Source: a virus (lineage: Duplodnaviria; Caudoviricetes). From it: a DNA stretch of 36,717 nt. The notes below the pieces were generated by a model. The model made no database searches. It was not told the DNA's origin and saw nothing but the letters and a program-made list of their open reading frames with translations. The stretch is from IMG/VR virus record IMGVR_UViG_3300047400_000088, positions 1 through 36,717 of that record; one strand, given 5' to 3'. Shown here one piece after another: positions 12,745 to 33,021 of this stretch (its first letter is position 1; each line of letters starts with the position of its first letter). The position numbers were made by a program, and so were the translations under genes.

Positions 12745-13144
12745 GCTTGCCGATGTTGCGCAGGGCGTAACGTCATACACGATAAATAAGAACGCGAGCG
12801 GAACAAACGACCTCGTGTATCCATCCATGTGGGCTACGCCAACGCCGTCAGGCATTACACGGCATTGGATCGAGTATAAATTATCGATCCTCGTCTTCGA
12901 CCTCGTGCATAAGGACGAGAGCAACAAGATCGAGGTGTTGAGCGACACCATTCAGATACTGGAAGACCTCATCAACTACCTGCGCCAGCCGGCCTATGAG
13001 GACTACTTCAGCATTGACAACGAATATTCATTCACAGCCGAACCATTCACGGACAAGTTCAATGACGAGGTGAGCGGCTGGGCGATGGAGATCACGATCA
13101 AGGTTCCCAACGAAAACAACATCTGCACACTCCCTGTATCATGA
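12662..13144 (+). CDS. Tail terminator-like protein
   Basis: 160 aa, acidic; 'YPSMW', 'VLSDTIQILEDL', 'EPFTDKFND.VSGW' pattern. Confidence 0.65.
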   Translation: MYSLNQIEKTLQNFVNAHQLLNSYGFGELADVAQGVTSYTINKNASGTNDLVYPSMWATPTPSGITRHWIEYKLSILVFDLVHKDESNKIEVLSDTIQILEDLINYLRQPAYEDYFSIDNEYSFTAEPFTDKFNDEVSGWAMEITIKVPNENNICTLPVS

Positions 13145-13908
13145 GCATATCGAAGGTCATTCAAAAAACATTGGTCGGCCTTGCTGCCGACTTTTCAGGC
13201 TCAAACCCTACACCGCCGCTTGGGTGCTTGTGCATCGAAACCGATACCGGCGTGGCGAAGATTGGCGACGGCGCGACTGCCTACAATTCGCTGGCAGCAA
13301 TAAAGGGATCGCTGTCCAATGCCTTAACAGCCAGCACGGGCCTCGCCTTTGTTTCCGGCAGTTCCTTTGACGGTTCGGCAGCCCGCGCGCTGAAGCTGGC
13401 CAACACCGCCGTAAGCGCCGGGAGCTATACCAATGCTAACATCACCGTAGATGCGCAGGGTCGCATCACGGCAGCGGCCAATGGCAGCAGCGGCGGTGGT
13501 GCTGGCTCTGTGCTGGGATGCGTTTACTATGACCCGGGTAGCGCGCAGAACAAGACCACAACATCATCGTCAGGTGTTGCTATGGATACTACGAACCTGC
13601 GAATTTCATTCGTGGCACCTTCTTCGGGTGCCGTTGAATGTGTAGGCGGCGCTTATGCCGGCGCTGCCGTACAGGGCGCGTTCGTCATCATGGAGTCAAG
13701 CACCATAAAGGGCGGTTTGTTATCCGGGTCGACGGTCATGCCTACCTATGGCCGGTGCAAGATAACGGGCCTTACCCCGGGCAACACGTACACCTATGAC
13801 CTCGGCATTGCTTCGGCTTCCGGCGGCACGTTCAGCGCAAAGTATGGCGGTGGTGCAGTACCGGCAAGCGGGTACGGCCCTGCATGGTTTTTAATCATCA
13901 CGCAATAA
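13141..13908 (+). CDS. Tail fibre / receptor-binding protein
   Basis: N-terminal 'NP....G...ETDTG..KIGDG.TAYNSL' (Mtd/hyaluronidase N-terminal-like); 'GSYTNANITVDAQGRITAA' fibre repeat; G/S/T-rich tip. Confidence 0.8.
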   Translation: MSISKVIQKTLVGLAADFSGSNPTPPLGCLCIETDTGVAKIGDGATAYNSLAAIKGSLSNALTASTGLAFVSGSSFDGSAARALKLANTAVSAGSYTNANITVDAQGRITAAANGSSGGGAGSVLGCVYYDPGSAQNKTTTSSSGVAMDTTNLRISFVAPSSGAVECVGGAYAGAAVQGAFVIMESSTIKGGLLSGSTVMPTYGRCKITGLTPGNTYTYDLGIASASGGTFSAKYGGGAVPASGYGPAWFLIITQ

Positions 13909-17042: not shown

Positions 17043-17345
17043 ATGGAAAATGTACCTACCGAAAACAACTCGAATGGCAATGGCGAAGCCCACGGCACAG
17101 ATTTTTCTTGGGCCCTTTACGCGCTGAAAGGCGGAAAAAAGGTAGCCCGATCAGGTTGGAATGGATCAGGAATGTTTCTTTGGCTATGCAAACACACGCC
17201 AGATGCAATATTTCAGATTGATTTTAACCATTCATATCCCGTTGGCGATTACATCGTCATTAAAACTGCACAGGGAACCGTAGAATCAGGATGGCGCCCC
17301 ACTTCCGCAGATATGCTGGCAGAAGATTGGGTTGTGGTTGAATAA
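17043..17345 (+). CDS. DUF2829 family protein (Tad2-like anti-defence sponge family)
   Basis: 'FSWAL.ALK.GKKVARSGWNG.GMF' and 'W.PT..DMLAEDW' are the DUF2829 signature. Confidence 0.8.
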   Translation: MENVPTENNSNGNGEAHGTDFSWALYALKGGKKVARSGWNGSGMFLWLCKHTPDAIFQIDFNHSYPVGDYIVIKTAQGTVESGWRPTSADMLAEDWVVVE

Positions 17346-23350: not shown

Positions 23351-24147
23351 TGGCAAAAGAGGATTTCTGCTTCACGTATTACGATGGCGATGCCGCCCGC
23401 GATATGAGCCACATGACAAGGCTACAACGGGGTGCATACGGTGACATCATCAGCGCAATACGTAAGTTCGGGCATATTTCACTTGATCAGGCGCGCATGA
23501 TCTTGAGCCGCGATTTTGACGAATGTTGGCCGGCCATTCAACTTGTTTTGAAGTCCGACGGGGCCGGAAAATTTTACATCGAATGGCTTGAAAATTCGCT
23601 AAACGCAATGCGACGGTCTTCCGCCAAGCAACGCGAGCGCAGGAACTCTTTTCTTGCAAAAAATCAAAATAATTCAACCGCGGTTGAACCACGGTTAAAC
23701 CACGGTAGTCCACCGGTACAACCTATAATAAAGATGGAGATGGAAATGGAAATGAAAAAGGATTTTGAACTTAAAGGGGGTATGGGGGAAAACAAAGACT
23801 TCGTGGACTTCGAAATTTTAACCGAAGAAATTTTGAAGGGCAACGACCCGCAATGGGAGGTGCTACTGATGAGCGACAGAGATGGCGCAATCAGCTACGA
23901 TGCGGATGGGGTGCGCGGCCATGAAGCGAAATGCATTCGGGATAAATCCGAGTTCCGCACAGCGCAGCACTTCCGAAAGTCGCTCTATGCCTATCTGAAA
24001 ACCATATACAAACGCAAATCAGAAAATCAACAAAATGGAAACTTCAATCGCAAAACAGCAGGAAAGAACCAGCTCACCGTTGCCGGTGCAGCAGACTTCC
24101 TTCGCGGCCTCTCTGACACGCCGCCCGGAACTGCAGCAGGTTCATAA
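23350..24147 (+). CDS. Replication initiator (DUF1376/YdaU-like N-terminus)
   Basis: 'F.YY.GD...D..HMT..QRGAY' N-terminus; internal iteron-like repeats; 'MEMEME' linker. Confidence 0.75.
   Translation: MAKEDFCFTYYDGDAARDMSHMTRLQRGAYGDIISAIRKFGHISLDQARMILSRDFDECWPAIQLVLKSDGAGKFYIEWLENSLNAMRRSSAKQRERRNSFLAKNQNNSTAVEPRLNHGSPPVQPIIKMEMEMEMKKDFELKGGMGENKDFVDFEILTEEILKGNDPQWEVLLMSDRDGAISYDADGVRGHEAKCIRDKSEFRTAQHFRKSLYAYLKTIYKRKSENQQNGNFNRKTAGKNQLTVAGAADFLRGLSDTPPGTAAGS
23676..23719. repeat. Iteron-like 11-bp tandem near-palindromes (putative replication origin)
   Basis: AACCGCGGTTG / AACCACGGTTA / AACCACGGTAG plus a degenerate fourth unit, flanked by A-rich tracts, inside the initiator gene. Confidence 0.6.
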
Positions 24148-24859
24148 CGCGATGCAGTCGCCGCTGGTGAAGGACAGTACGGATCGGGAGTTGGGTCAGG
24201 CGCTGGTGCAGATCGCCTTCCTGACTGGATCGGCCGCGCCTTCGCAGGATATCGCCCTGCCGCTGGTTGCCTTCATCCGCAAGACCTTCCCGCTAATCCG
24301 GGCCGGGGAGCTCGCTTTGGCCGTTGAGATGGATATTGCCGGCAGGTTCGGTGAGGCCCGTGAGCCGTTCAACAACATCAGCCCAAAGTACCTGCAAGCG
24401 GTGATGCAGCGATACGAGGCAAGCATTCGCCAGGACTACTGGAAGGAGTGGCAGGCAAATAACAATACCATTAAGGAGCCAACGCTGGAAGAGAAGGAAG
24501 AAGGCAACCGTAAGTGGGTTGCCAGGTTGAAGGAAGAAATAAATGCATGTATTGAAGATGGCAGAACGCCTCGATGGATAACCGAGTGTTATCGCTATTT
24601 GGTTAAGAACGGATTGATTGCGCTGAAGAAAGAAGATACAGCACCGCTGTGGGAGCGAGCCAAAGAGGCGCGTAGGGTTGAACTGAAGCAGAAGCTATCG
24701 AGTGGTGCCGCCTTCGCAGAGATCGCGCACATTAAAAACACACTCGCAAGGTACGATGAGGGTCACGTTGGTGATTTTGACCGCTATGCACTTTCGTTCA
24801 AAGCGAAGGAGTTAGCCGTAATGGATTGGATTACATCACGGAATGGGGAGGTGATATGA
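24035..24859 (+). CDS. Putative helicase loader / replication accessory protein
   Basis: Follows the initiator in the lambda O-P position; helical, 274 aa. Confidence 0.45.
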   Translation: METSIAKQQERTSSPLPVQQTSFAASLTRRPELQQVHNAMQSPLVKDSTDRELGQALVQIAFLTGSAAPSQDIALPLVAFIRKTFPLIRAGELALAVEMDIAGRFGEAREPFNNISPKYLQAVMQRYEASIRQDYWKEWQANNNTIKEPTLEEKEEGNRKWVARLKEEINACIEDGRTPRWITECYRYLVKNGLIALKKEDTAPLWERAKEARRVELKQKLSSGAAFAEIAHIKNTLARYDEGHVGDFDRYALSFKAKELAVMDWITSRNGEVI

Positions 24860-24887
24860 CCATAGGTGACAAAAAATCTATTTAACT

Positions 24888-24962
24888 ATCAATGAGTTAT
24901 GAAGACTTTGAAAAATAGTTGTAAATATATTTGTATTATATCAAATACTTGGTGTATATTTG
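24888..24962 (+). promoter_or_regulatory. Bacteroidota promoter driving the modification island
   Basis: TTTG at 24930-24933, 21-nt spacer, TATATTTG at 24955-24962; shares upstream boxes with the promoter at 18122. Confidence 0.8.
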
Positions 24963-24994
24963 TTGCATAAATCAAAAAAAGTGAAATTGATTCG

Positions 24995-25177
24995 ATGAAA
25001 AAAGCAAAGAACATACACCTAACGGAAGAAGCGATAAAAGCACTTACTATTAAGGCAATAGAACACGGTTCTAATTTTAAGAACTACGTAGAAAGTAAGT
25101 TAGAAGCACTCGCCCAAGTATCTTACGGCTTTGCCGAAAAGAGGAAGAAAAAAAACACAATTAAAAATAAAATTTGA
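24995..25177 (+). CDS. Ribbon-helix-helix regulator
   Basis: 'KNIHLTEEAIKALTIKAIE.G.NFKNYVE..LE' pattern. Confidence 0.75.
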   Translation: MKKAKNIHLTEEAIKALTIKAIEHGSNFKNYVESKLEALAQVSYGFAEKRKKKNTIKNKI

Positions 25178-25181
25178 CTTT

Positions 25182-25442
25182 ATGAATATATTGCAACGAG
25201 CCGATAGCATAGTTAATGCTAGACTAGAGGAAAATCATAGGAATTACGGTGATTTCAACGAATCAATGCAAAGGATGGCTAATATTTTTAATGCATTGAC
25301 CGGCCATAACTTGTCTGTAAAGGATATGTTTATCGCGATGGTTGCTTTGAAATTTTCGCGCGAGTCATTTTCACACAAAGAAGATAATTTGCTGGACGCT
25401 GTAGCATATATCGGTGCACTAAATAACTACTTAAATTCATGA
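25182..25442 (+). CDS. DUF6378-like helical protein
   Basis: 'IL..A..IVN.R......YG......RMA...MVALK.SR....K.DN..D..AY' pattern; start reassigned to ATG 25182. Confidence 0.7.
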   Translation: MNILQRADSIVNARLEENHRNYGDFNESMQRMANIFNALTGHNLSVKDMFIAMVALKFSRESFSHKEDNLLDAVAYIGALNNYLNS

Positions 25443-26296
25443 AGACAGGTATCGTTGGGGTTATCAATAATCCGGCAACATCTATTAATTCACATTCAGC
25501 GGGAATGGTGAATATCGTCTCTAAGTTGTTTAATGCCGACGTCTTGACTGAGAACGATAATTGGGATGAATACGAAAGACTCATCATCTACCATGGCGTA
25601 AATTTTGTGCGAGGATCGTATAATATTATCGGCGGGATGAATGATAAGATTATTTGCCGAGCAGGTAAAGTTGCAAAATTTAATGGGCATCTATATTCAT
25701 TAGATGGTTTTCAATTAAATGATTTTTCGAACAAAAGAAAATTAAAACTATATGATAATCATGCGACTATTGCCGAGATAGAACTCCCGCATAGAGATAA
25801 ACTACTAATTGGAGATAGTCATTCCGTGTCGGTCTGGAGGGATATTTCTTTCACCATACAAAGAATGGATGGAAAAACATTGTATGGTTTTTTGAAGAAC
25901 CCTATTGTTGCTGATTATTATTACTTTGGCAACATTGATGTTAGGTTTCATTTAGCGCGCCAAGTTGATCCTATTGATGCAACCAAAGATCTTGTAAAAA
26001 GATACATTGCACATGCTAAAATAAACAACGCGACTGTGACATGTTTGCTTCCGGTTGAAAATGAGGATCGCAAAATACCTTCGACTGGATTGTATAAGAA
26101 AAAACCATTTTATGGGTCAAGAGAACTACGTTCTAGGTTAGTTGAGGTGTTTAACAGTGAACTCCTTAGCTCTGGATTGGTTGTTCATCAATGGCCAATA
26201 AGATGGTATGATGATATAAGTTATTATCAATCAGAGGTGATGGAACCAAAACAGTCGGTGCATATCAGGCCAAAATATTACGCTAACAATATATAG
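25439..26296 (+). CDS. Hybrid protein: T4 beta-glucosyltransferase-like N-domain plus SGNH-like domain (putative acyltransferase/esterase)
   Basis: N-terminus MKTGIVGVINN...EYERLII..N....NIIGG; C-terminal half IGDSHS, FGNID, SVH. Confidence 0.5.
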   Translation: MKTGIVGVINNPATSINSHSAGMVNIVSKLFNADVLTENDNWDEYERLIIYHGVNFVRGSYNIIGGMNDKIICRAGKVAKFNGHLYSLDGFQLNDFSNKRKLKLYDNHATIAEIELPHRDKLLIGDSHSVSVWRDISFTIQRMDGKTLYGFLKNPIVADYYYFGNIDVRFHLARQVDPIDATKDLVKRYIAHAKINNATVTCLLPVENEDRKIPSTGLYKKKPFYGSRELRSRLVEVFNSELLSSGLVVHQWPIRWYDDISYYQSEVMEPKQSVHIRPKYYANNI

Positions 26297-27265
26297 ATGA
26301 CGATCAACAAGCACGTTTTAGAGGCCTTAGATGAGTATCACGAGAGGAGTTTGCTCATGCAGGGGGCGCGTTATGATAAGACCATTGACGTAACAAGTAA
26401 GCAACTAAAAGATATGGTCAATGATGACTTGATTTTTTATGTACCAATCTATGACATGCTTGATAGAAAATATGCAGCATTTTCGTCGTTTCCGGAAGCC
26501 CTTCGCCTAAGAGAGAGTGATCCCAAAGGATATGGTATAAAGTACAAAGATCATAACGTGCAAGAAGGCATTGATCACTTGATGTTGCTATATTTGTTCA
26601 GACTATGTGGGTCAGGCATTAACTATAAGCCGCAATCCCATGGATTTGGCAACTTCTGGATATCAAACATGGTATTAGAAGGTAAATACACTTACAAAGA
26701 ATGGCTAAACTCAATTCCTGAGGCGAAGTTTAGTGATAACAAAGGTTATATGCTGCCACAATTCACGATTGGCCTTAGAAATTTTATTTTGCAACACTCC
26801 GAGGATCTTGTCGCGTATATGTATGACGCCATGTTGAGTCGTACAACACCGATGTCTATTATTGAGTTGGTTGATACCGGAAATGCGTGGATGAACAATT
26901 TAGGGTTTAACAAAACAACATTTGTGTTAAGTGCCTTTGCGGCTGACGTTGCTGAGTATTATCCAAAATTAATTGATCAATGGTCGATGATCTATGCAGG
27001 AACTAATGCCAGGCGTTGCATTAGAGCTATATTTGGAAAATCATCACAATTTGATGCGATAGATTTTCTTAGCAAAAGATACAACGCTACGCCATACTCT
27101 ATAGAGGACTCAAGACTATGTGATCCAGTGCGATATTTTTTAGAATATCAATCTAAGTATCATATAGAGAATAACGATGGTGTTATCTATAAAAATAATT
27201 CAATATTAAAGAAAACATGGACACTGGACGAGTACCAAGATTTTACTCTACGACTTCGGGGGTAA
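26297..27265 (+). CDS. aGPT-Pplase / 5-hmdU DNA kinase (HMUDK)-like helical protein
   Basis: 'DDLI..VPIYDMLDR', 'LFRL', 'F....FAAD...Y...GTNARR.I..IF', 'IED..LCD..RY' match the family's conserved blocks. Confidence 0.65.
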   Translation: MTINKHVLEALDEYHERSLLMQGARYDKTIDVTSKQLKDMVNDDLIFYVPIYDMLDRKYAAFSSFPEALRLRESDPKGYGIKYKDHNVQEGIDHLMLLYLFRLCGSGINYKPQSHGFGNFWISNMVLEGKYTYKEWLNSIPEAKFSDNKGYMLPQFTIGLRNFILQHSEDLVAYMYDAMLSRTTPMSIIELVDTGNAWMNNLGFNKTTFVLSAFAADVAEYYPKLIDQWSMIYAGTNARRCIRAIFGKSSQFDAIDFLSKRYNATPYSIEDSRLCDPVRYFLEYQSKYHIENNDGVIYKNNSILKKTWTLDEYQDFTLRLRG

Positions 27266-28065
27266 ATAGCGATGCTATCTACACTAAGGATGAATATCTT
27301 GAAATGGTTAAAGACTTCGAGAGTTCGTTTCCAAGTCCTATTGTAGATGACTTTGATGGACGAATAATTGTACGTGAAGATCTTCTGGAAGTTGGTTCCA
27401 AAGCCAGGGCAGGTGAAGCGTTGATATCCTCCGTAGATAATGATACTATCGTGTATGTACAGCCAAGATTCGGATTTGCAGGCATATCTCTAACTAAACT
27501 ATGTAAAATGTACAGTAAAAAGCTCGTGCTTTTTATGCCTGCTTCCAAGGAAGTATCTGAGCACCAAGCATATTGCATTGAGCATGGCTGTGATGCACAT
27601 TTTTATCGTGTAGCCGCAATGCCAAATTTGAATCGCATCGCGAAAGCATATGCTAAAGATACAAATTCTTTTTTTATACCGCTAGGATTGCGTCATAAGC
27701 TCGTTACGGCAATGATCATTAAGACAGCGTGTGAAATAGAAGAGCCTAAAAGATTTTGGACAGCATTCTCAACTGGTGTCTTAAATCGTGCCTTGCAAAT
27801 CGCGTGGCCTAATTCAGAAGCTTATGGTCTTGCCGTAGCTAGAAATATTAAAGATGGTGAGAAGGGTAGGGCAACAATCATTGGTCACTATCAATATTTT
27901 GAACAGAATAGTAAAATCATTCCACCGTATGCCAGCGCGTTAAATTACGATGCAAAAGTGTGGGAATACTTACAAGAAGGGGACTTATTTTGGAACGTGG
28001 CAGGCAACATAAAGTCTAGTATAAATAAAACAAACATAAACTCAAACGTAAAATGGAAAAAATGA
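27217..28065 (+). CDS. PLP-dependent fold-type II enzyme (DNA-modification decarboxylase-like)
   Basis: 'VREDL...GSKAR' (Schiff-base Lys), 'FIPLGL', 'STGVL', 'NYDAKVW', 'LFWNVAG' motifs. Confidence 0.85.
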   Translation: MDTGRVPRFYSTTSGVNSDAIYTKDEYLEMVKDFESSFPSPIVDDFDGRIIVREDLLEVGSKARAGEALISSVDNDTIVYVQPRFGFAGISLTKLCKMYSKKLVLFMPASKEVSEHQAYCIEHGCDAHFYRVAAMPNLNRIAKAYAKDTNSFFIPLGLRHKLVTAMIIKTACEIEEPKRFWTAFSTGVLNRALQIAWPNSEAYGLAVARNIKDGEKGRATIIGHYQYFEQNSKIIPPYASALNYDAKVWEYLQEGDLFWNVAGNIKSSINKTNINSNVKWKK

Positions 28066-28364
28066 ACCTAACAAATGAATTTGAACCAGTAAGACAATGG
28101 GCAATCAACAGGTCACTGTACAAACAGGGCGATGTTAAAACGCAGTTTGTAAAACTCTTAGAAGAAGTTGGAGAGTTGTCGAGTGCTATTTTGAAAAACA
28201 ATGACGCCGAAACAATAGATGCCGTAGGCGACTGTGTTATAGTGTTAACAAACCTTGCTGCTTTGAAGGGGTATAATATAGAGGACTGTATTAACGCAGC
28301 ATTTTCGGTCATAGCAAAAAGAAAGGGAAAAATGGAAAATGGCACATTTGTCAAAGAAAAGTAA
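28053..28364 (+). CDS. MazG-like dNTP pyrophosphohydrolase
   Basis: 'KLLEEVGEL', 'DAVGD', 'I..RKG.M.NG.FVKE' motifs. Confidence 0.9.
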   Translation: MEKMNLTNEFEPVRQWAINRSLYKQGDVKTQFVKLLEEVGELSSAILKNNDAETIDAVGDCVIVLTNLAALKGYNIEDCINAAFSVIAKRKGKMENGTFVKEK

Positions 28365-28755
28365 ATCGCGTTTACTTTACAGTAATATTGCTCGCGCTGT
28401 GGCTGAATGTTCTATGGCGGTACGCGAGAAAGTGGGTGCAGTAATCGTGCGCGATGGCAACATATTGTCTTATGGATACAATGGAACGTTGCCAGGAACT
28501 GACAACACATGTGAAAATAATAATAAAACAAAGAAAGACGTAGTCCATGCCGAGATTAATGCAATAGCTAAGTGTGCAAGATCAACGGTTAGCACAGATG
28601 GGGCCGAGTTGTATTGCACACTATCTCCGTGCGAGGAATGCGCGAAACTTATTGTGCAATCCGGGATTATTGCCGTCTATTACACAAAGGAGTACAGGGA
28701 TACCAGTGGACTAGAATTATTGTTAAAATCAAAAGTAAAATATGGGAAAATTTAG
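28339..28755 (+). CDS. dCMP deaminase
   Basis: 'KVGAVIV....GYNG', HAEINAI and SPCEEC zinc motifs. Confidence 0.93.
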   Translation: MAHLSKKSKSRLLYSNIARAVAECSMAVREKVGAVIVRDGNILSYGYNGTLPGTDNTCENNNKTKKDVVHAEINAIAKCARSTVSTDGAELYCTLSPCEECAKLIVQSGIIAVYYTKEYRDTSGLELLLKSKVKYGKI

Positions 28756-29377
28756 CACAGCACAAGATGCTTTTGAATTTTATTACAAAAAGATATCAAC
28801 CAAAGGCGAGGCGTCTTCCGGCACTAGATATTTGCAAAACATCGGATTCTACATATCCAATCCTTTGCAAAATAAAATCAACACAAAATACAGGAATTGG
28901 AAAGAAGACTACGCGGCAACTGAATGGGAGTGGTATCTATCAAAGAATAGAAGCGTAAGCGAGATAAAGAAAAAAGCAAAGATATGGGACTCGATGCATC
29001 ACGGCGATGATATTGTCAACTCCAATTACGGGTATCAATGGGGCAGGAACAACCAACTCCAATATGTTATCGACGAGTTAATTAGGAATAAGGACTCTAG
29101 AAGGGCGGTTATTACCATATATGATGGTAAAGAACATGAGATGCACTCGCTAGACACGCCATGCACGTTAAATGTCGTGTTTAGTATATCAAATGAAAAG
29201 CTCAATATGTCTGTTCTTATGCGTTCAAATGATCTGTGGTATGGTTTTTGCAATGATCAATACTGTTTTAGTTTACTGTTAAAACTAATTGCAGATAAAT
29301 TAGGTATTGAAATTGGTTGGTATTATCATTTTGCCAATAACTTACATTTGTACGAAAACTTTTTGCATAGAGATTAA
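28742..29377 (+). CDS. Thymidylate synthase-superfamily enzyme, probably dCMP hydroxymethylase-type
   Basis: 'NSNYG', 'DSRRA', catalytic 'PC', 'MRSNDLWYGFCND', 'NLHLY'; Asp at the position of E. coli TS Asn177. Confidence 0.85.
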   Translation: MGKFSTAQDAFEFYYKKISTKGEASSGTRYLQNIGFYISNPLQNKINTKYRNWKEDYAATEWEWYLSKNRSVSEIKKKAKIWDSMHHGDDIVNSNYGYQWGRNNQLQYVIDELIRNKDSRRAVITIYDGKEHEMHSLDTPCTLNVVFSISNEKLNMSVLMRSNDLWYGFCNDQYCFSLLLKLIADKLGIEIGWYYHFANNLHLYENFLHRD

Positions 29378-29391
29378 TTCAATCAGTAATC

Positions 29392-31194
29392 GTGTCATCC
29401 CTTGTAAATATCATTTGCAGTGATCCTGAGTATTTACAGGCATGTAAAACTATCACTAAGGGTTCAGCGCTTGCCGATGATCTATACCAAGAGGTCATCC
29501 TTTGCCTGCTAGAAAAGAGCGAAACAAAGCAGCGCGAGATCGCAGAAGGTGGATATATCAAACTTTGGTTCGCCAAAACGGCATGGCAAATGTGGACGAA
29601 TGAAAGGTCAAGTTTTAGTAGGATACATCGCGGCAAACTTGGCATCATACAATCTTTCGAGAATTATCAATTTGCAAGCCCAGGGACTGACGACGAAGTG
29701 GAACCCCGTGACGAGTATGACTGCCACTCGTCCGATATCAATAACGCCGAACCCGATGATCGCCGCGACATCGAGGAAGCCCTCGCGCTGCTCGAGGGCG
29801 ATGGCAACTACACGCAGTCTTGGTTTGATCGCAAGATTCTTGATGTATATATGGAGTATGGTAGTGCCCGCGAGGTCAGTGAGCGTACCGGCATTATAAG
29901 ACCAACAATAGATGCAAGCATACGAAGAAGCAAATCACGATTAAAAAGAAAGATGGAACATAAGCACATCCGCATCCTTATCGTCTGCCCACGAGAATAT
30001 TCGGGCAGCGACTTCTACCGAACCCTCATCCCGCATCTGCACCTGAACTTCAATCACCCGGACGACTTCGAGGTAGTGCAGATACCCACAATGGACGCGG
30101 AGCACATCCAAACGCCCGAAGGCAACGTGCCGCTATTTGAATACCTGAATGGCTTTCACATCGCGGTATTTAGCCGGCAGTTGTCGCACTACGGCAACAG
30201 CAAGAAGATAGCCGACGGCCTGCGCGCGATGGGTACGCGCATTGTGCTGGACATCGATGACTATTGGCATGTGCCAAGTACGCACGTTCTTTATGAAGAT
30301 TACCGGGCGATGAATTTGCCGGCACATCTGATCGCCGACATGCGCTTGGCAGACCACATCACCACCACTACGAGCATCCTTGCCGATGAGATACGCAAGG
30401 TGAACACCAATGTAAGCGTGTTACCCACGGCCTATGACCCCGACCGGCAATACATGCAGCCCGGCCACACCACATACTCACGTACCCGCATCGGATGGAT
30501 GGGTGGTATCTGCCATCGCGACGACATCGACCTATTGAGTGCGGGCATTCAAAAGTTGCACAGCGACAAGAGCCTGGAGGGCCGATATCAGCTAATCCTG
30601 GGTGGCTTTAACCTCCAGCAAAGCCGATGGGAGCCAGGCAAGCCTGATTCAGATGGGCGAGTGATGTACGAGCCGGTGGTCCTTCCATTTTGGCAGCAGG
30701 AGTACGTCCATTTCGAGCGTGTATTCACCAACGACTACAAGGCAGTCGGCGAGCAGTACATGAAGCACCTGCATCGGGGCAATACACTTGGGTGGGATGA
30801 TGAGGAGAATGAGCCATACCGCCGCATATATGGCCGCCCGGCGGGCGAATACATGCAGGGGTATGCCGACTTCGACATTGCGCTGGCCCCATTGAAGGCA
30901 AACAAGTTCAGCCGGTGTAAGAGTCAACTGAAGCTGATCGAGGCAGGGTTCTTCAAACTGCCCCTGATTTGCTCGGCCACGGAGCCGTACACCATCGACG
31001 GCAAGCATGGTCACAACTGCCTGATGGTTCAGGAAAGCAAGGGACACAAGGACTGGTACCGCTGCATGAAGATGCTCCTGAAGGACGAAAGCCTGCGCCG
31101 GGAGCTGGGCGAGAACCTGCACAAGGACGTTCAGAAGTACCACATCCGCGAGCAGATCGGCGCTCGCATTGACCTATACAAGCACCTCTACTGA
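29392..31194 (+). CDS. Fusion of an ECF-like sigma-70 factor (aa 1-187) and a GT-B glycosyltransferase (aa 188-600)
   Basis: 'ADDLYQEVIL' region 2; 'SAREVSERTGI...TI...IRR' region 4 HTH; then 'DIDDYW', 'RIGWMGG..H..D', 'DIALAPL...F..CKS.LK.IEAG'. Confidence 0.85.
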   Translation: MSSLVNIICSDPEYLQACKTITKGSALADDLYQEVILCLLEKSETKQREIAEGGYIKLWFAKTAWQMWTNERSSFSRIHRGKLGIIQSFENYQFASPGTDDEVEPRDEYDCHSSDINNAEPDDRRDIEEALALLEGDGNYTQSWFDRKILDVYMEYGSAREVSERTGIIRPTIDASIRRSKSRLKRKMEHKHIRILIVCPREYSGSDFYRTLIPHLHLNFNHPDDFEVVQIPTMDAEHIQTPEGNVPLFEYLNGFHIAVFSRQLSHYGNSKKIADGLRAMGTRIVLDIDDYWHVPSTHVLYEDYRAMNLPAHLIADMRLADHITTTTSILADEIRKVNTNVSVLPTAYDPDRQYMQPGHTTYSRTRIGWMGGICHRDDIDLLSAGIQKLHSDKSLEGRYQLILGGFNLQQSRWEPGKPDSDGRVMYEPVVLPFWQQEYVHFERVFTNDYKAVGEQYMKHLHRGNTLGWDDEENEPYRRIYGRPAGEYMQGYADFDIALAPLKANKFSRCKSQLKLIEAGFFKLPLICSATEPYTIDGKHGHNCLMVQESKGHKDWYRCMKMLLKDESLRRELGENLHKDVQKYHIREQIGARIDLYKHLY

Positions 31195-32111
31195 TGAAAT
31201 ACGTTTTTATCTGCGCGGATGACTGGGCCAACCTGCAACACGAGTTGGCGCAATCGCTACGCGCTGCCGTAACGTCGGATGACACGGTGCAGGCCGTGAA
31301 ACTGCGGTCGCACCCATTCGGGTATGACCACCAATGCCCAATGCGCACGGTGGAGCAGATGGCAGAAATGTCCGCCGATGCGGACGCGGTATTCATCACG
31401 CACAGCGATCACGAGCTATTGCCATACGTGAACCGCAGTAGCCGGATCATCCCCATTCACACAGGAACAAAGTACCGGCAGAACGCGCAGGCGATCAATG
31501 AGGCGTTCTCATTCACCGATCTACAACTGACCGACCAGACCGAGTTCTTCGGTCTTGGCGCAAAGAATCTACGGTACATCACCGTGCCGGTAACAATCGA
31601 CAAGTGGCAGCTATTCAGCCATGAATCCAGCCGCCCCTACATCGTGGGCCACTACCCCAGCAACCCACACGTGAAGGGAACCGATCGCATCATTACGATG
31701 ATGGCGCAGGTACGCACTCCCCATCGCTTTGATTACAGCACGACGCGGCTGCCTCACCCGGATCACCTGCGGCGCATTGCCAACTCAGACATCTATGTGG
31801 AGTTGTTCGCCCCGCAACAGGGTGGTCGCGAATACGGATGCTACGGCGTTACGGCCTTTGAGGCGGCAGCAATGGGTCGCGTCGTGGTTACGCAGAACCT
31901 TCACCCTGAGATATACGAGGAGGAGTACGGCTCCTGCCCCTTCATCCTTGCCGAGAATGAGGGCGATTTCATCGCCAAGATGGACTATGTACTGAACATG
32001 CCACCGGCAGAACTGCGCGACCGGCAGACGAAGCACTACATGAAGATGAAGGAATACCACAGCCACAATGAAACCGGCCTGCGCATCCTAAACTACCTGA
32101 ATAAGCCATGA
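31194..32111 (+). CDS. GT-B (GT4-like) glycosyltransferase
   Basis: 'H.PSN...KGT', 'DIYVE', 'YGVTAFEAAAMGRVVV' motifs. Confidence 0.8.
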   Translation: MKYVFICADDWANLQHELAQSLRAAVTSDDTVQAVKLRSHPFGYDHQCPMRTVEQMAEMSADADAVFITHSDHELLPYVNRSSRIIPIHTGTKYRQNAQAINEAFSFTDLQLTDQTEFFGLGAKNLRYITVPVTIDKWQLFSHESSRPYIVGHYPSNPHVKGTDRIITMMAQVRTPHRFDYSTTRLPHPDHLRRIANSDIYVELFAPQQGGREYGCYGVTAFEAAAMGRVVVTQNLHPEIYEEEYGSCPFILAENEGDFIAKMDYVLNMPPAELRDRQTKHYMKMKEYHSHNETGLRILNYLNKP

Positions 32112-32221
32112 CCCCCAACGTCCAACCACGCGACCCGCGCCGGTTCTCATACCCGGCAGCCATTGCATTTAGCCTGCTCATGTGGGCAATAATCTTAAAA
32201 CTGTCAGGATGCCATCTGTAA
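32108..32221 (+). CDS. Small membrane peptide (37 aa)
   Basis: ATGA-coupled; hydrophobic AAIAFSLLMWAIIL. Confidence 0.4.
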   Translation: MTPNVQPRDPRRFSYPAAIAFSLLMWAIILKLSGCHL

Positions 32222-33021
32222 CCATTCTTTTACTCACCATTGACCGTTACGAGGTAACGAGCAAGGTAATCACGCAGGCCCTGCTGAATGCCGGCCACAC
32301 ATTCACGCTGCATGTGCATGACAACGGCAGCAGCGACGTTGCCATTCAGAAATGGGGGCTCGACCAGTCGCGCCAGTACAACGGCAAGTACACGCGCAGC
32401 GAATCCAACATCGGCACCACGCAGGCCCTCAACATCATGATGCGCGGCACCAATTCCGATTACTATGTTTTCATAGGTAATGACATTGCGCTGCCTCCCG
32501 GATGGCTGAAGGCAATGGTAGAATACGCCGAAGCCATACCGAACAGCGGCATGGTGGGCATCAATTGGCGACCGCTGGAGTACCCGGCAGCCGTGGTGAA
32601 TGGTAAACTCACATGGCCCAGCAAGCGCATCTTCGGCGACGTGCTGTTCGGCAAGCATGTACGGCAAGCCATCGGCGAACTGTGCGAGGACTACGGGCCT
32701 TATGGTCTTTGGGATAGCGATACGGCGGTGCGGTGTGAGATGGCCGGGTTATTGAACTACTACATCGCCGACCTTCGTAGCGAACACATGACCAACGACG
32801 TAGGCGAGGACAGCGACTACCGGCGCATGAAGGACGCATCGCTATCGACAGCCAAACCCATCTACTCTGCCAATGTTGAGCAGTACAAGACTACGGGTCT
32901 AATAAATTTGAGCTATGAAAAAGGATACAAAGAAACCCGGCCAGCATGGTACGGCAAAGATTCGGGGGTGGATCAGCCTTCAGGAACAGGCCCCGAAGGA
33001 CTACAAGGCCAAGTCGGTTAA
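32209..33021 (+). CDS. GT-A (GT2 family) glycosyltransferase
   Basis: 'VTILLLT..R', 'DNGSSD', 'NIG...ALN', 'GND' (DxD variant), 'YGLWDSD' motifs. Confidence 0.85.
   Translation: MPSVTILLLTIDRYEVTSKVITQALLNAGHTFTLHVHDNGSSDVAIQKWGLDQSRQYNGKYTRSESNIGTTQALNIMMRGTNSDYYVFIGNDIALPPGWLKAMVEYAEAIPNSGMVGINWRPLEYPAAVVNGKLTWPSKRIFGDVLFGKHVRQAIGELCEDYGPYGLWDSDTAVRCEMAGLLNYYIADLRSEHMTNDVGEDSDYRRMKDASLSTAKPIYSANVEQYKTTGLINLSYEKGYKETRPAWYGKDSGVDQPSGTGPEGLQGQVG

Follow-up and report, generated by a model that had tools for sequence, protein, structure and literature searches.

A phage gene joining a T4 beta-glucosyltransferase-like domain to an SGNH fold, and its possible part in priming 5-hydroxymethylcytosine

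What might a phage do to its DNA with a protein that has the N-terminal domain of T4 beta-glucosyltransferase (BGT), but a domain of SGNH type in place of the one that binds UDP-glucose? This question is raised by a 285-amino-acid open reading frame at 25439..26296 on the + strand of IMGVR_UViG_3300047400_000088. The record is a whole virus of 36,717 bases, 100% complete by CheckV, and its full length is referred to here as the window. A sequence-only reading had noted a BGT-like beginning and GDSH, GNID and SVH motifs in this protein, and had proposed a base-flipping acyl- or aminoacyl-transferase that acts on a hydroxymethyl base in DNA; the reading frame and the quoted motifs are present as it described them. 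The record carries terminase, recombination and head genes. A Pfam scan of 56 of the 168 listed ORFs found no DNA polymerase, and the terminase was the sole P-loop match. Elsewhere in the window are a Tad2-like anti-Thoeris gene (17043-17345; PF11195, E 5e-23) and a weak match to Mtd_N, the major tropism determinant (13141-13908; E 0.001). The public runs that hold the window are aquatic or freshwater metagenomes, which may be its own source, and no RNA run is among those listed.

AlphaFold models of the whole protein and of its N-domain were compared with known structures, as the sequence-only reading had suggested. The N-domain returned BGT first, and the C-domain returned SGNH proteins first.

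The N-domain comprises residues 1-117 (25439..25789, + strand), and its model has a pLDDT of 96. In a Foldseek search of the PDB the T4 BGT chains occupied ranks 1-3, the best with E 8.3e-3, prob 0.98 and TMq 0.53. The top match by VIA was BGT 1c3j (Z 6.2, rmsd 3.8, 99 aligned residues, 21% identity), the next row having Z 4.9. A VIA Z of 6.2 alone is middling, and neither the Foldseek nor the VIA score is strong by itself. The sequence profile of the family agrees with the structure searches. That profile matched T4 BGT with probability 95%, E 2.9e-8 and a score of 50.2, where 60 shuffled BGT sequences reached at most 17.8; the whole-length profile gave a probability of 88.8%, with the N-x-F-G-G loop in register. 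The Pfam model T4-Gluco-transf was weakly matched by 5 of 122 family members (best E 0.0024). The N-terminal part is thus like the N-domain of T4 BGT, as had been proposed. The N-x-[F/I]-G-G loop (N62-G66) aligns with BGT residues 70-74, a loop that we take to have a part in base flipping; the literature searched gave no confirmation of that role. Among 126 diverse members N62 is found in 120, F64 in 89, G65 in 107 and G66 in 111, and the window copy has Ile64. The same 126 members show no conserved column at the place of the acidic residue near BGT position 100, which is presumably the catalytic base of BGT.

Residues 118-285 (25790..26296, + strand) adopt the SGNH fold in the full-length model (pLDDT 93). 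The top VIA rows over this region are SGNH proteins (Z 11.3, rmsd 3.0, 155 aligned residues), and the best 40 rows are all of SGNH/GDSL type by title or fold. Foldseek also returns SGNH proteins, with no row reaching E 0.001, and it aligns 1bgt with the full-length protein only poorly (TMq 0.25, rmsd 16.2). The C-terminal half is therefore of SGNH type and not a UDP-glucose-binding domain, as the sequence-only reading had it. A glucosyltransferase can be ruled out, since the protein has no sugar-nucleotide domain.

The motifs were borne out in part, in that the GDS serine and the C-terminal histidine fit the SGNH pattern, while the block III asparagine and block V aspartate positions are non-canonical. 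Block I is almost invariant in the 126 diverse members (G125 in 125, D126 in 126 and S127 in 124). H128, H171, R211, R231 and E269 occur in all 126, and H275 in 125; R169 and T147 are near-invariant and, like R211, R231, H128 and H171, lie outside the SGNH blocks. The domain also has a family-specific basic loop at 207-231. A candidate for block II, G145 (108/126), was placed against that block by a profile alignment alone, which was not significant (probability 2.4%), and a profile built from five ordinary SGNH proteins matched the family only weakly. Block III reads G164-N165-I166-D167, that is G-N-I-D against the canonical G-x-N-D. The place of the canonical oxyanion asparagine is held by isoleucine in 121/126, and N165 (105/126) may stand in for it. 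In block V the place of the triad aspartate, position 272, is glutamine in the window copy and is not conserved. On the model and the conservation, S127 is the predicted nucleophile and H275 the predicted base, with E269 as a candidate acid. By its fold the domain belongs to SGNH, and it departs from the canonical pattern in blocks III and V.

The fold, the GDS serine and the C-terminal histidine are held in common with SGNH O-acyltransferases and esterases such as OafA/OafB, OatA, PatB and TesA. OafA/B have an atypical oxyanion hole and lack the block III motif, as here (PMC7448272). The present protein differs from these enzymes in having no triad aspartate at His-3, in its G-N-I-D block III and in its N-domain like that of a DNA enzyme. 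No SGNH enzyme that acts on DNA bases was found in the literature searched.

The family is large. Clustering at 90% gives 293 proteins, and at 50% identity there are 441 clusters, collected at E values up to 0.001; we estimate that about 1500 stored viral stretches carry one family motif. Homologues occur in 43 isolated-phage records (38 Aeromonas, 3 Tenacibaculum and 2 Stenotrophomonas), and the 23 matches in bacterial genomes are mostly on MAG contigs with phage-like neighbours. No useful match came from PDB sequence searches, whether the query was the protein or its profile; there is no Pfam or NCBIfam model, and PHROGs places the family in two unnamed families. No account of it was found in the literature searched. 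Iyer et al. 2013 (NAR gkt573), which lay beyond the reach of that search and is said to have defined the aGPT-Pplase clades, may mention the family. The BGT-N/SGNH architecture is real, and undescribed as far as these searches reach.

We turn to the genes around it. The + strand genes overlap or abut across 25131-29377. A DUF6378 gene (25131..25442), present in 137/160 related loci, ends with its stop codon overlapping the start of the hybrid gene. Directly after the stop of the hybrid gene begins a gene for a helix-hairpin-helix (HhH)-type protein (26297..27265) resembling the HMUDK_hel / amino acid:DNA transferase clan. It is followed by a PLP enzyme (27217..28065), a MazG-like nucleotide pyrophosphatase (28053..28364) and a dCMP deaminase (28339..28755), the last two assigned by family match, and by an enzyme of thymidylate-synthase fold (28742..29377). 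The MazG-like protein likely removes dCTP. All of these genes lie on the + strand. The cassette, 25001-29400, forms a low-GC island of 36-39% against 50-59% over most of the record, and this composition across its whole length indicates that it probably arrived as one unit. Two contigs from public runs, covering 23866-30332 and 24966-31010, include the hybrid gene with no differences within it, though the window may itself come from these runs. Since single contigs bridge the borders of the island, an assembly artefact is ruled out.

Some further features of this region may be recorded. An imperfect inverted repeat of 15 nt (24986-25000 / 25253-25267) lies at the island. The count of promoters and terminators is at chance level (22 vs 17.0 +/- 4.5). 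Three glycosyltransferase-like genes of ordinary GC content lie 3' of the cassette at 29392-33021 and are not kept beside it in relatives; the first of them has a long N-terminal part with a faint match to sigma-70 region 2.

The synthase indicates which base is involved. Its best PDB matches are MilA and T4 gp42, and it has aspartate at positions 143, 169 and 177 in E. coli numbering, the residues that mark a dCMP hydroxymethylase (PMC13326640). The same three residues are found in 95 of 101 distinct synthase frames. One aspartate of the window enzyme aligns with a T4 residue that is read as Asn in entry 6l18. The hydroxymethyluracil (hmU) branch is ruled out by the aspartate at 177, where the dUMP-specific residue is Asn177, and the 5-hydroxycytosine branch is ruled out for the window by the retained Asp169. 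The proposal of a hydroxymethyl base as substrate is thus supported, and from these residues the base can be narrowed to what would be cytosine. In several T4-like loci a C5 cytosine DNA methyltransferase gene lies 3' of the hybrid gene (L178 7945-9156, L183 8056-9255, L184, L186 and L190).

The two genes immediately downstream recall the hypermodification of thymine. The HhH protein of the window has no direct Pfam match. Its neighbours in the ESM Atlas are clusters named HMUDK_hel and AADT (features 0.97, TM 0.62-0.69), and E270, D271 and C275 are present in 97/97 rows of an alignment that takes in seven of the eight fusions of the window type described below. This trio recalls the residues E222/T223/C226, which are catalytic in a clade-2 transferase (PMC13458397). 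A profile of the protein gave no significant match to M6 gp51, gp55, P0189 or P0240. Its assignment as a putative HhH enzyme draws on the ESM Atlas look-alikes and this one motif. The PLP enzyme belongs to PHROG 7093, which it matches with E 3.7e-31 and which phage M6 gp52 matches with E 2e-159; the pairwise identity of the two proteins is 20%. M6 gp52 is a demonstrated DNA-amino-acid decarboxylase (PMC8989533). The nearest PLP relatives in isolated phages, at 30% identity, are those of Erythrobacter phage R6L and Microcystis phage Mae-JY30 (L170 and L171). They are annotated as DNA methylases and stand in another context, with ParB-like genes adjoining in Mae-JY30.

How constant are these partners? 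We compared 183 loci, of which 153 are distinct and 83 have enough flanking sequence. The cassette of the window, with an HhH gene of its clade and a PLP enzyme, is termed type A. In type B there is instead a gene matching Pfam HMUDK_hel. It is accompanied by a small HAD-like gene, an inositol-1-phosphate synthase and a dNTP pyrophosphatase, and in many cases by an FkbM methyltransferase. A representative lies at L155 9060-13329, and others are in L076, L142, L154, L157-L160, L178, L182, L184, L190 and L192; the DxDG motif of the small gene was read by eye, and it has no family match. The type A HhH gene occurs with the PLP enzyme in 89 of the 153 distinct loci and without it in 16; the PLP enzyme alone is present in 20, and the type B HhH gene accompanies the inositol synthase in 16. 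A further 3 have the inositol synthase only, 9 have none of these and no locus is mixed, many of the partial ones being short contigs. In the 83 distinct well-flanked loci an HhH gene of either type is present in 75 and the pyrimidine synthase in 70. Eight of the 83 have the PLP enzyme and the synthase with no nearby HhH gene. The eight contigs of this kind that were searched are 4-20% complete, and in other contigs the HhH gene is displaced. Fusion also links the two proteins. Of 14 listed representatives that exceed 440 amino acids, 10 carry an HhH domain as well, which in eight is akin to the window partner and in two is HMUDK_hel. A point against the priming role considered below is that M6 gp55, which resembles HMUDK_hel, could be dispensed with in M6 lysates (PMC8989533).

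Two variants of the type A arrangement may be mentioned. In some T4-like cassettes a second gene of about 320 amino acids, with a faint resemblance to the HhH profile (E 1e-4 to 3.6), lies between the HhH and PLP genes (L183 5106-6092, L194 304-1266, L195 4766-5755 and L196 2118-3077). In L042, L044 and L045 the type A HhH protein and the dCMP hydroxymethylase form a single fusion of about 605 amino acids, and these loci have no PLP gene.

The relationship between the cassette types is informative. In a FastTree tree of 65 thinned family members, type B copies appear at several points within type A clades, with 9 label changes as a raw count that includes two unlabelled isolates. The type B copy L006 is 71% identical to the type A copy L092, and only 36% identical to other type B copies; between L178 (type B) and L186 the identity is 74%, L186 being labelled type A on an incomplete HhH frame. 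The hybrid enzyme thus stays nearly the same while the genes downstream are exchanged, in keeping with an initial step that both types share and with hmC as the common substrate. A further indication comes from the C-termini. Tails resembling the QLxLF-type clamp motif (PMC4549789) end 78/120 close relatives, which are not independent of one another, against 1 in 3114 internal 10-mers. Elsewhere in the cassette such tails are found in 0/100 synthases, 0/57 MazG proteins and 2/61 deaminases. Their presence on relatives of the hybrid and not on the nucleotide-level enzymes points to DNA as the substrate, in keeping with the sequence-only reading, although the tail is absent from the window copy and is found in only 4/139 distant representatives.

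In the thymine pathways a kinase, a required step, makes the hydroxyl a leaving group, and a cysteine-dependent HhH enzyme then exchanges that group for an amino acid or amine (PMC8989533, PMC13458397). Searches for the M6-type DNA kinase (PF18748, M6 gp54), the one type that they covered, found none in the window record, in two relatives that are 95-98% complete or in 44RR, and in a control the M6 genome was matched at E 1e-19. A single-sequence gp54 model found no match in the 183 loci. In L188 a P-loop gene adjoins the synthase. As far as these searches for the M6-type kinase go, the hybrid protein is not part of a standard kinase pathway. With the kinase slot empty, and the constant gene being a hybrid of a domain for hmC with an SGNH domain, we infer by analogy that O-acylation could be the priming step. 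We give about even chances to the proposal that the protein O-acylates 5hmC in DNA, creating a leaving group in place of the thymine-pathway kinase. The proposal draws on the genes that partner and fuse with this one, on conserved residues and on folds seen in predicted models. The constant pairing of the hybrid gene with an HhH gene of transferase-like kind, which the sequence-only reading had not noted, suggests that the ester would be an intermediate rather than the final mark. The protein would then do for cytosine what the activation step does in thymidine hypermodification, probably by way of an ester.

The pathway might run as follows. The synthase (28742-29377), judged by its signature residues, would make hm-dCMP, which the host polymerase would incorporate into DNA. 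The BGT-like domain would present the base, Ser127 would take an acyl group from a donor such as acetyl-CoA, and His275 would help its transfer to the 5-CH2OH, acetylation being the simplest case. By analogy with the clade-2 transferases, Cys275 of the HhH protein would add to C6, the carboxylate would leave, and a nucleophile would add to the exocyclic methylene. A PLP enzyme needs a free amine, and the glycine route gains one only through a radical-SAM isomerase (PMC8989533). No such isomerase was seen among the scanned ORFs of the window and the PLP decarboxylase is present, so that serine is the likely nucleophile there, probably giving a cytosine of aminoethoxymethyl type. In type B cassettes the nucleophile would probably be inositol. 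An inositol-linked cytosine is isobaric with glucosyl-hmC, and the cultured phage 44RR may already have it. The whole scheme, in which a widespread class of phage enzymes, each an acceptor domain of glucosyltransferase kind joined to a serine acyltransferase, would esterify 5hmC to ready it for kinase-free group transfer and so give undescribed cytosines, amine-bearing in the window and inositol-linked perhaps already in 44RR, is one we hold tentatively, at somewhat short of even odds.

Isolated phages provide a complication. Phages 44RR, 31 and 25 of Aeromonas have gene 42 but no glucosyltransferase, and the modification of their hmC was an open question in 2010 (PMC2993671); PMC1524935 adds nothing further on it. 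In Aeromonas phage 44RR2.8t (L001 6408-10388, ORF234c-233c) a sodium:solute symporter lies directly before a fusion of the hybrid protein with a type B HhH domain. No inositol synthase was found in the 44RR2.8t genome, and with the symporter next door the nucleophile may be imported through it. In the complete genomes of phage 25 and PTm1 the hybrid gene is present, and no type A or B HhH gene was found. Both copies are diverged, that of PTm1 lacking R211 and E269 and that of phage 25 lacking G217 and S273. The PTm1 synthase has the 5-hydroxy-dCMP signature E143/N169/D177, and a 5-hydroxy base cannot form the methylene intermediate, which counts against a priming role in that phage. In these two phages the protein must do something else, perhaps acylating a sugar. 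In Tenacibaculum phage PTm1 (L215 10914-13852, ORF165-167) the synthase homologue stands beside a nucleotidyltransferase-kinase and a histidine phosphatase, and from its genes the phage may carry glycosylated 5-hydroxycytosine. In phage 25 (L003 3668-6939) a UDP-galactopyranose mutase and a 358-amino-acid gene, glycosyltransferase-like by eye, lie beside the diverged copy, where 44RR has the symporter and the HhH part.

These two phages bear most directly on the main alternative, in which the HhH enzyme uses hmC as it is, and the hybrid protein adds a final acyl cap to the group last attached (a PLP-derived amine, inositol or a sugar), or to hmC itself as the end product. Capping would cover phage 25, which has the mutase and no HhH gene, and PTm1, with its 5-hydroxycytosine signature and sugar-nucleotide genes beside the synthase. 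It also has precedents: the SGNH enzymes with atypical oxyanion holes, OafA/B, are sugar O-acetyltransferases (PMC7448272), the GNAT acetyltransferase gp48 of PaMx11 performs a terminal acetyl step (PMC8989533), and O-carbamoyl-hmC is an end product (PMC8670742). However, enzymes that are 71-74% identical would have to serve acceptors as unlike as aminoethyl and inositol, the HhH step would be left without the leaving-group activation that thymine pathways need (PMC8989533), and the two isolates without HhH genes are just those with diverged copies. We consider a capping role unlikely, and give it a real share of probability because phage 25 and PTm1 have no HhH partner.

The aminoacyl transfer that the sequence-only reading had also envisaged would have an activated donor supply an amino acid, which the protein would join to hmC as an ester for the PLP enzyme to act on. 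DltD is an SGNH-like aminoacyl transferase, and the 8/83 loci with the hybrid gene, PLP enzyme and synthase and no nearby HhH gene would suit such a route. These HhH-less contigs are small fragments, however, and the displacement of the HhH gene in others weakens the point. The route leaves the HhH fusions and the 16 inositol-synthase cassettes without a PLP enzyme unexplained; since a 71-74% identical enzyme serves cassettes of the latter kind, we regard it as very improbable. Most SGNH structural matches are hydrolases, and the Ser-His pair might instead hydrolyse an ester intermediate, or the invariant R211, R231, H128 and H171, with the near-invariant R169 and T147, all outside the SGNH blocks, might transfer another group, such as phosphoryl. 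No other conserved enzyme of the cassette could make the ester or activate hmC, however, and the role of the basic residues may be no more than the binding of DNA or CoA. Hydrolysis or non-acyl chemistry thus appears improbable, and O-acylation as a priming step is the reading that we prefer.

Comparison with characterized systems places the proposed priming step in context. With T4 BGT (b-gt, PF09198; PDB 1c3j/1j39/1qkj) the protein has in common the fold and sequence of the N-domain, the N-x-F-G-G loop and the pairing with a dCMP hydroxymethylase; the second domain of BGT is a UDP-glucose-binding Rossmann domain, where the present protein has SGNH. The thymidine hypermodification systems of M6, ViI, PaMx11, PhiW-14 and SH-Ab 15599 combine 5-HMUDK, an amino acid:DNA transferase and a PLP decarboxylase (PMC8989533, PMC13458397). 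What the cassette has in common with them is a synthase for a hydroxymethyl pyrimidine, a PLP enzyme from the family of M6 gp52, a putative HhH protein whose motif is Glu...Cys, and a modular set of downstream genes. It differs in following the cytosine rather than the uracil branch, in that no M6-type kinase was found, in the constant BGT-N/SGNH hybrid and in having a second type with inositol synthase. The nearest demonstrated chemistry to the proposed step is the O-carbamoylation of hmC. The 5-hydroxymethylcytosine carbamoyltransferase is likewise a phage enzyme paired with a dCMP hydroxymethylase, and puts an acyl-type group on the hmC hydroxyl, as proposed here (PMC8670742). It is a 63 kDa protein of another family that uses carbamoyl phosphate and ATP, prefers single strands and acts on nucleotides, and its product is the final modification. 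Six Pfam accessions were looked for in four supplements of PMC8670742, and none was present.

If the priming step is as proposed, an ester in place of a phosphate would be a new chemistry for activating a DNA base, and a pair of enzymes writing chosen groups onto 5hmC would provide a labelling tool for epigenomics. Hypermodification with amino acids and polyols would be extended from thymine to cytosine. For the phages that have gene 42 and no glucosyltransferases, the hybrid protein offers a testable answer to how their hmC is decorated, and one of them, 44RR, is in culture.
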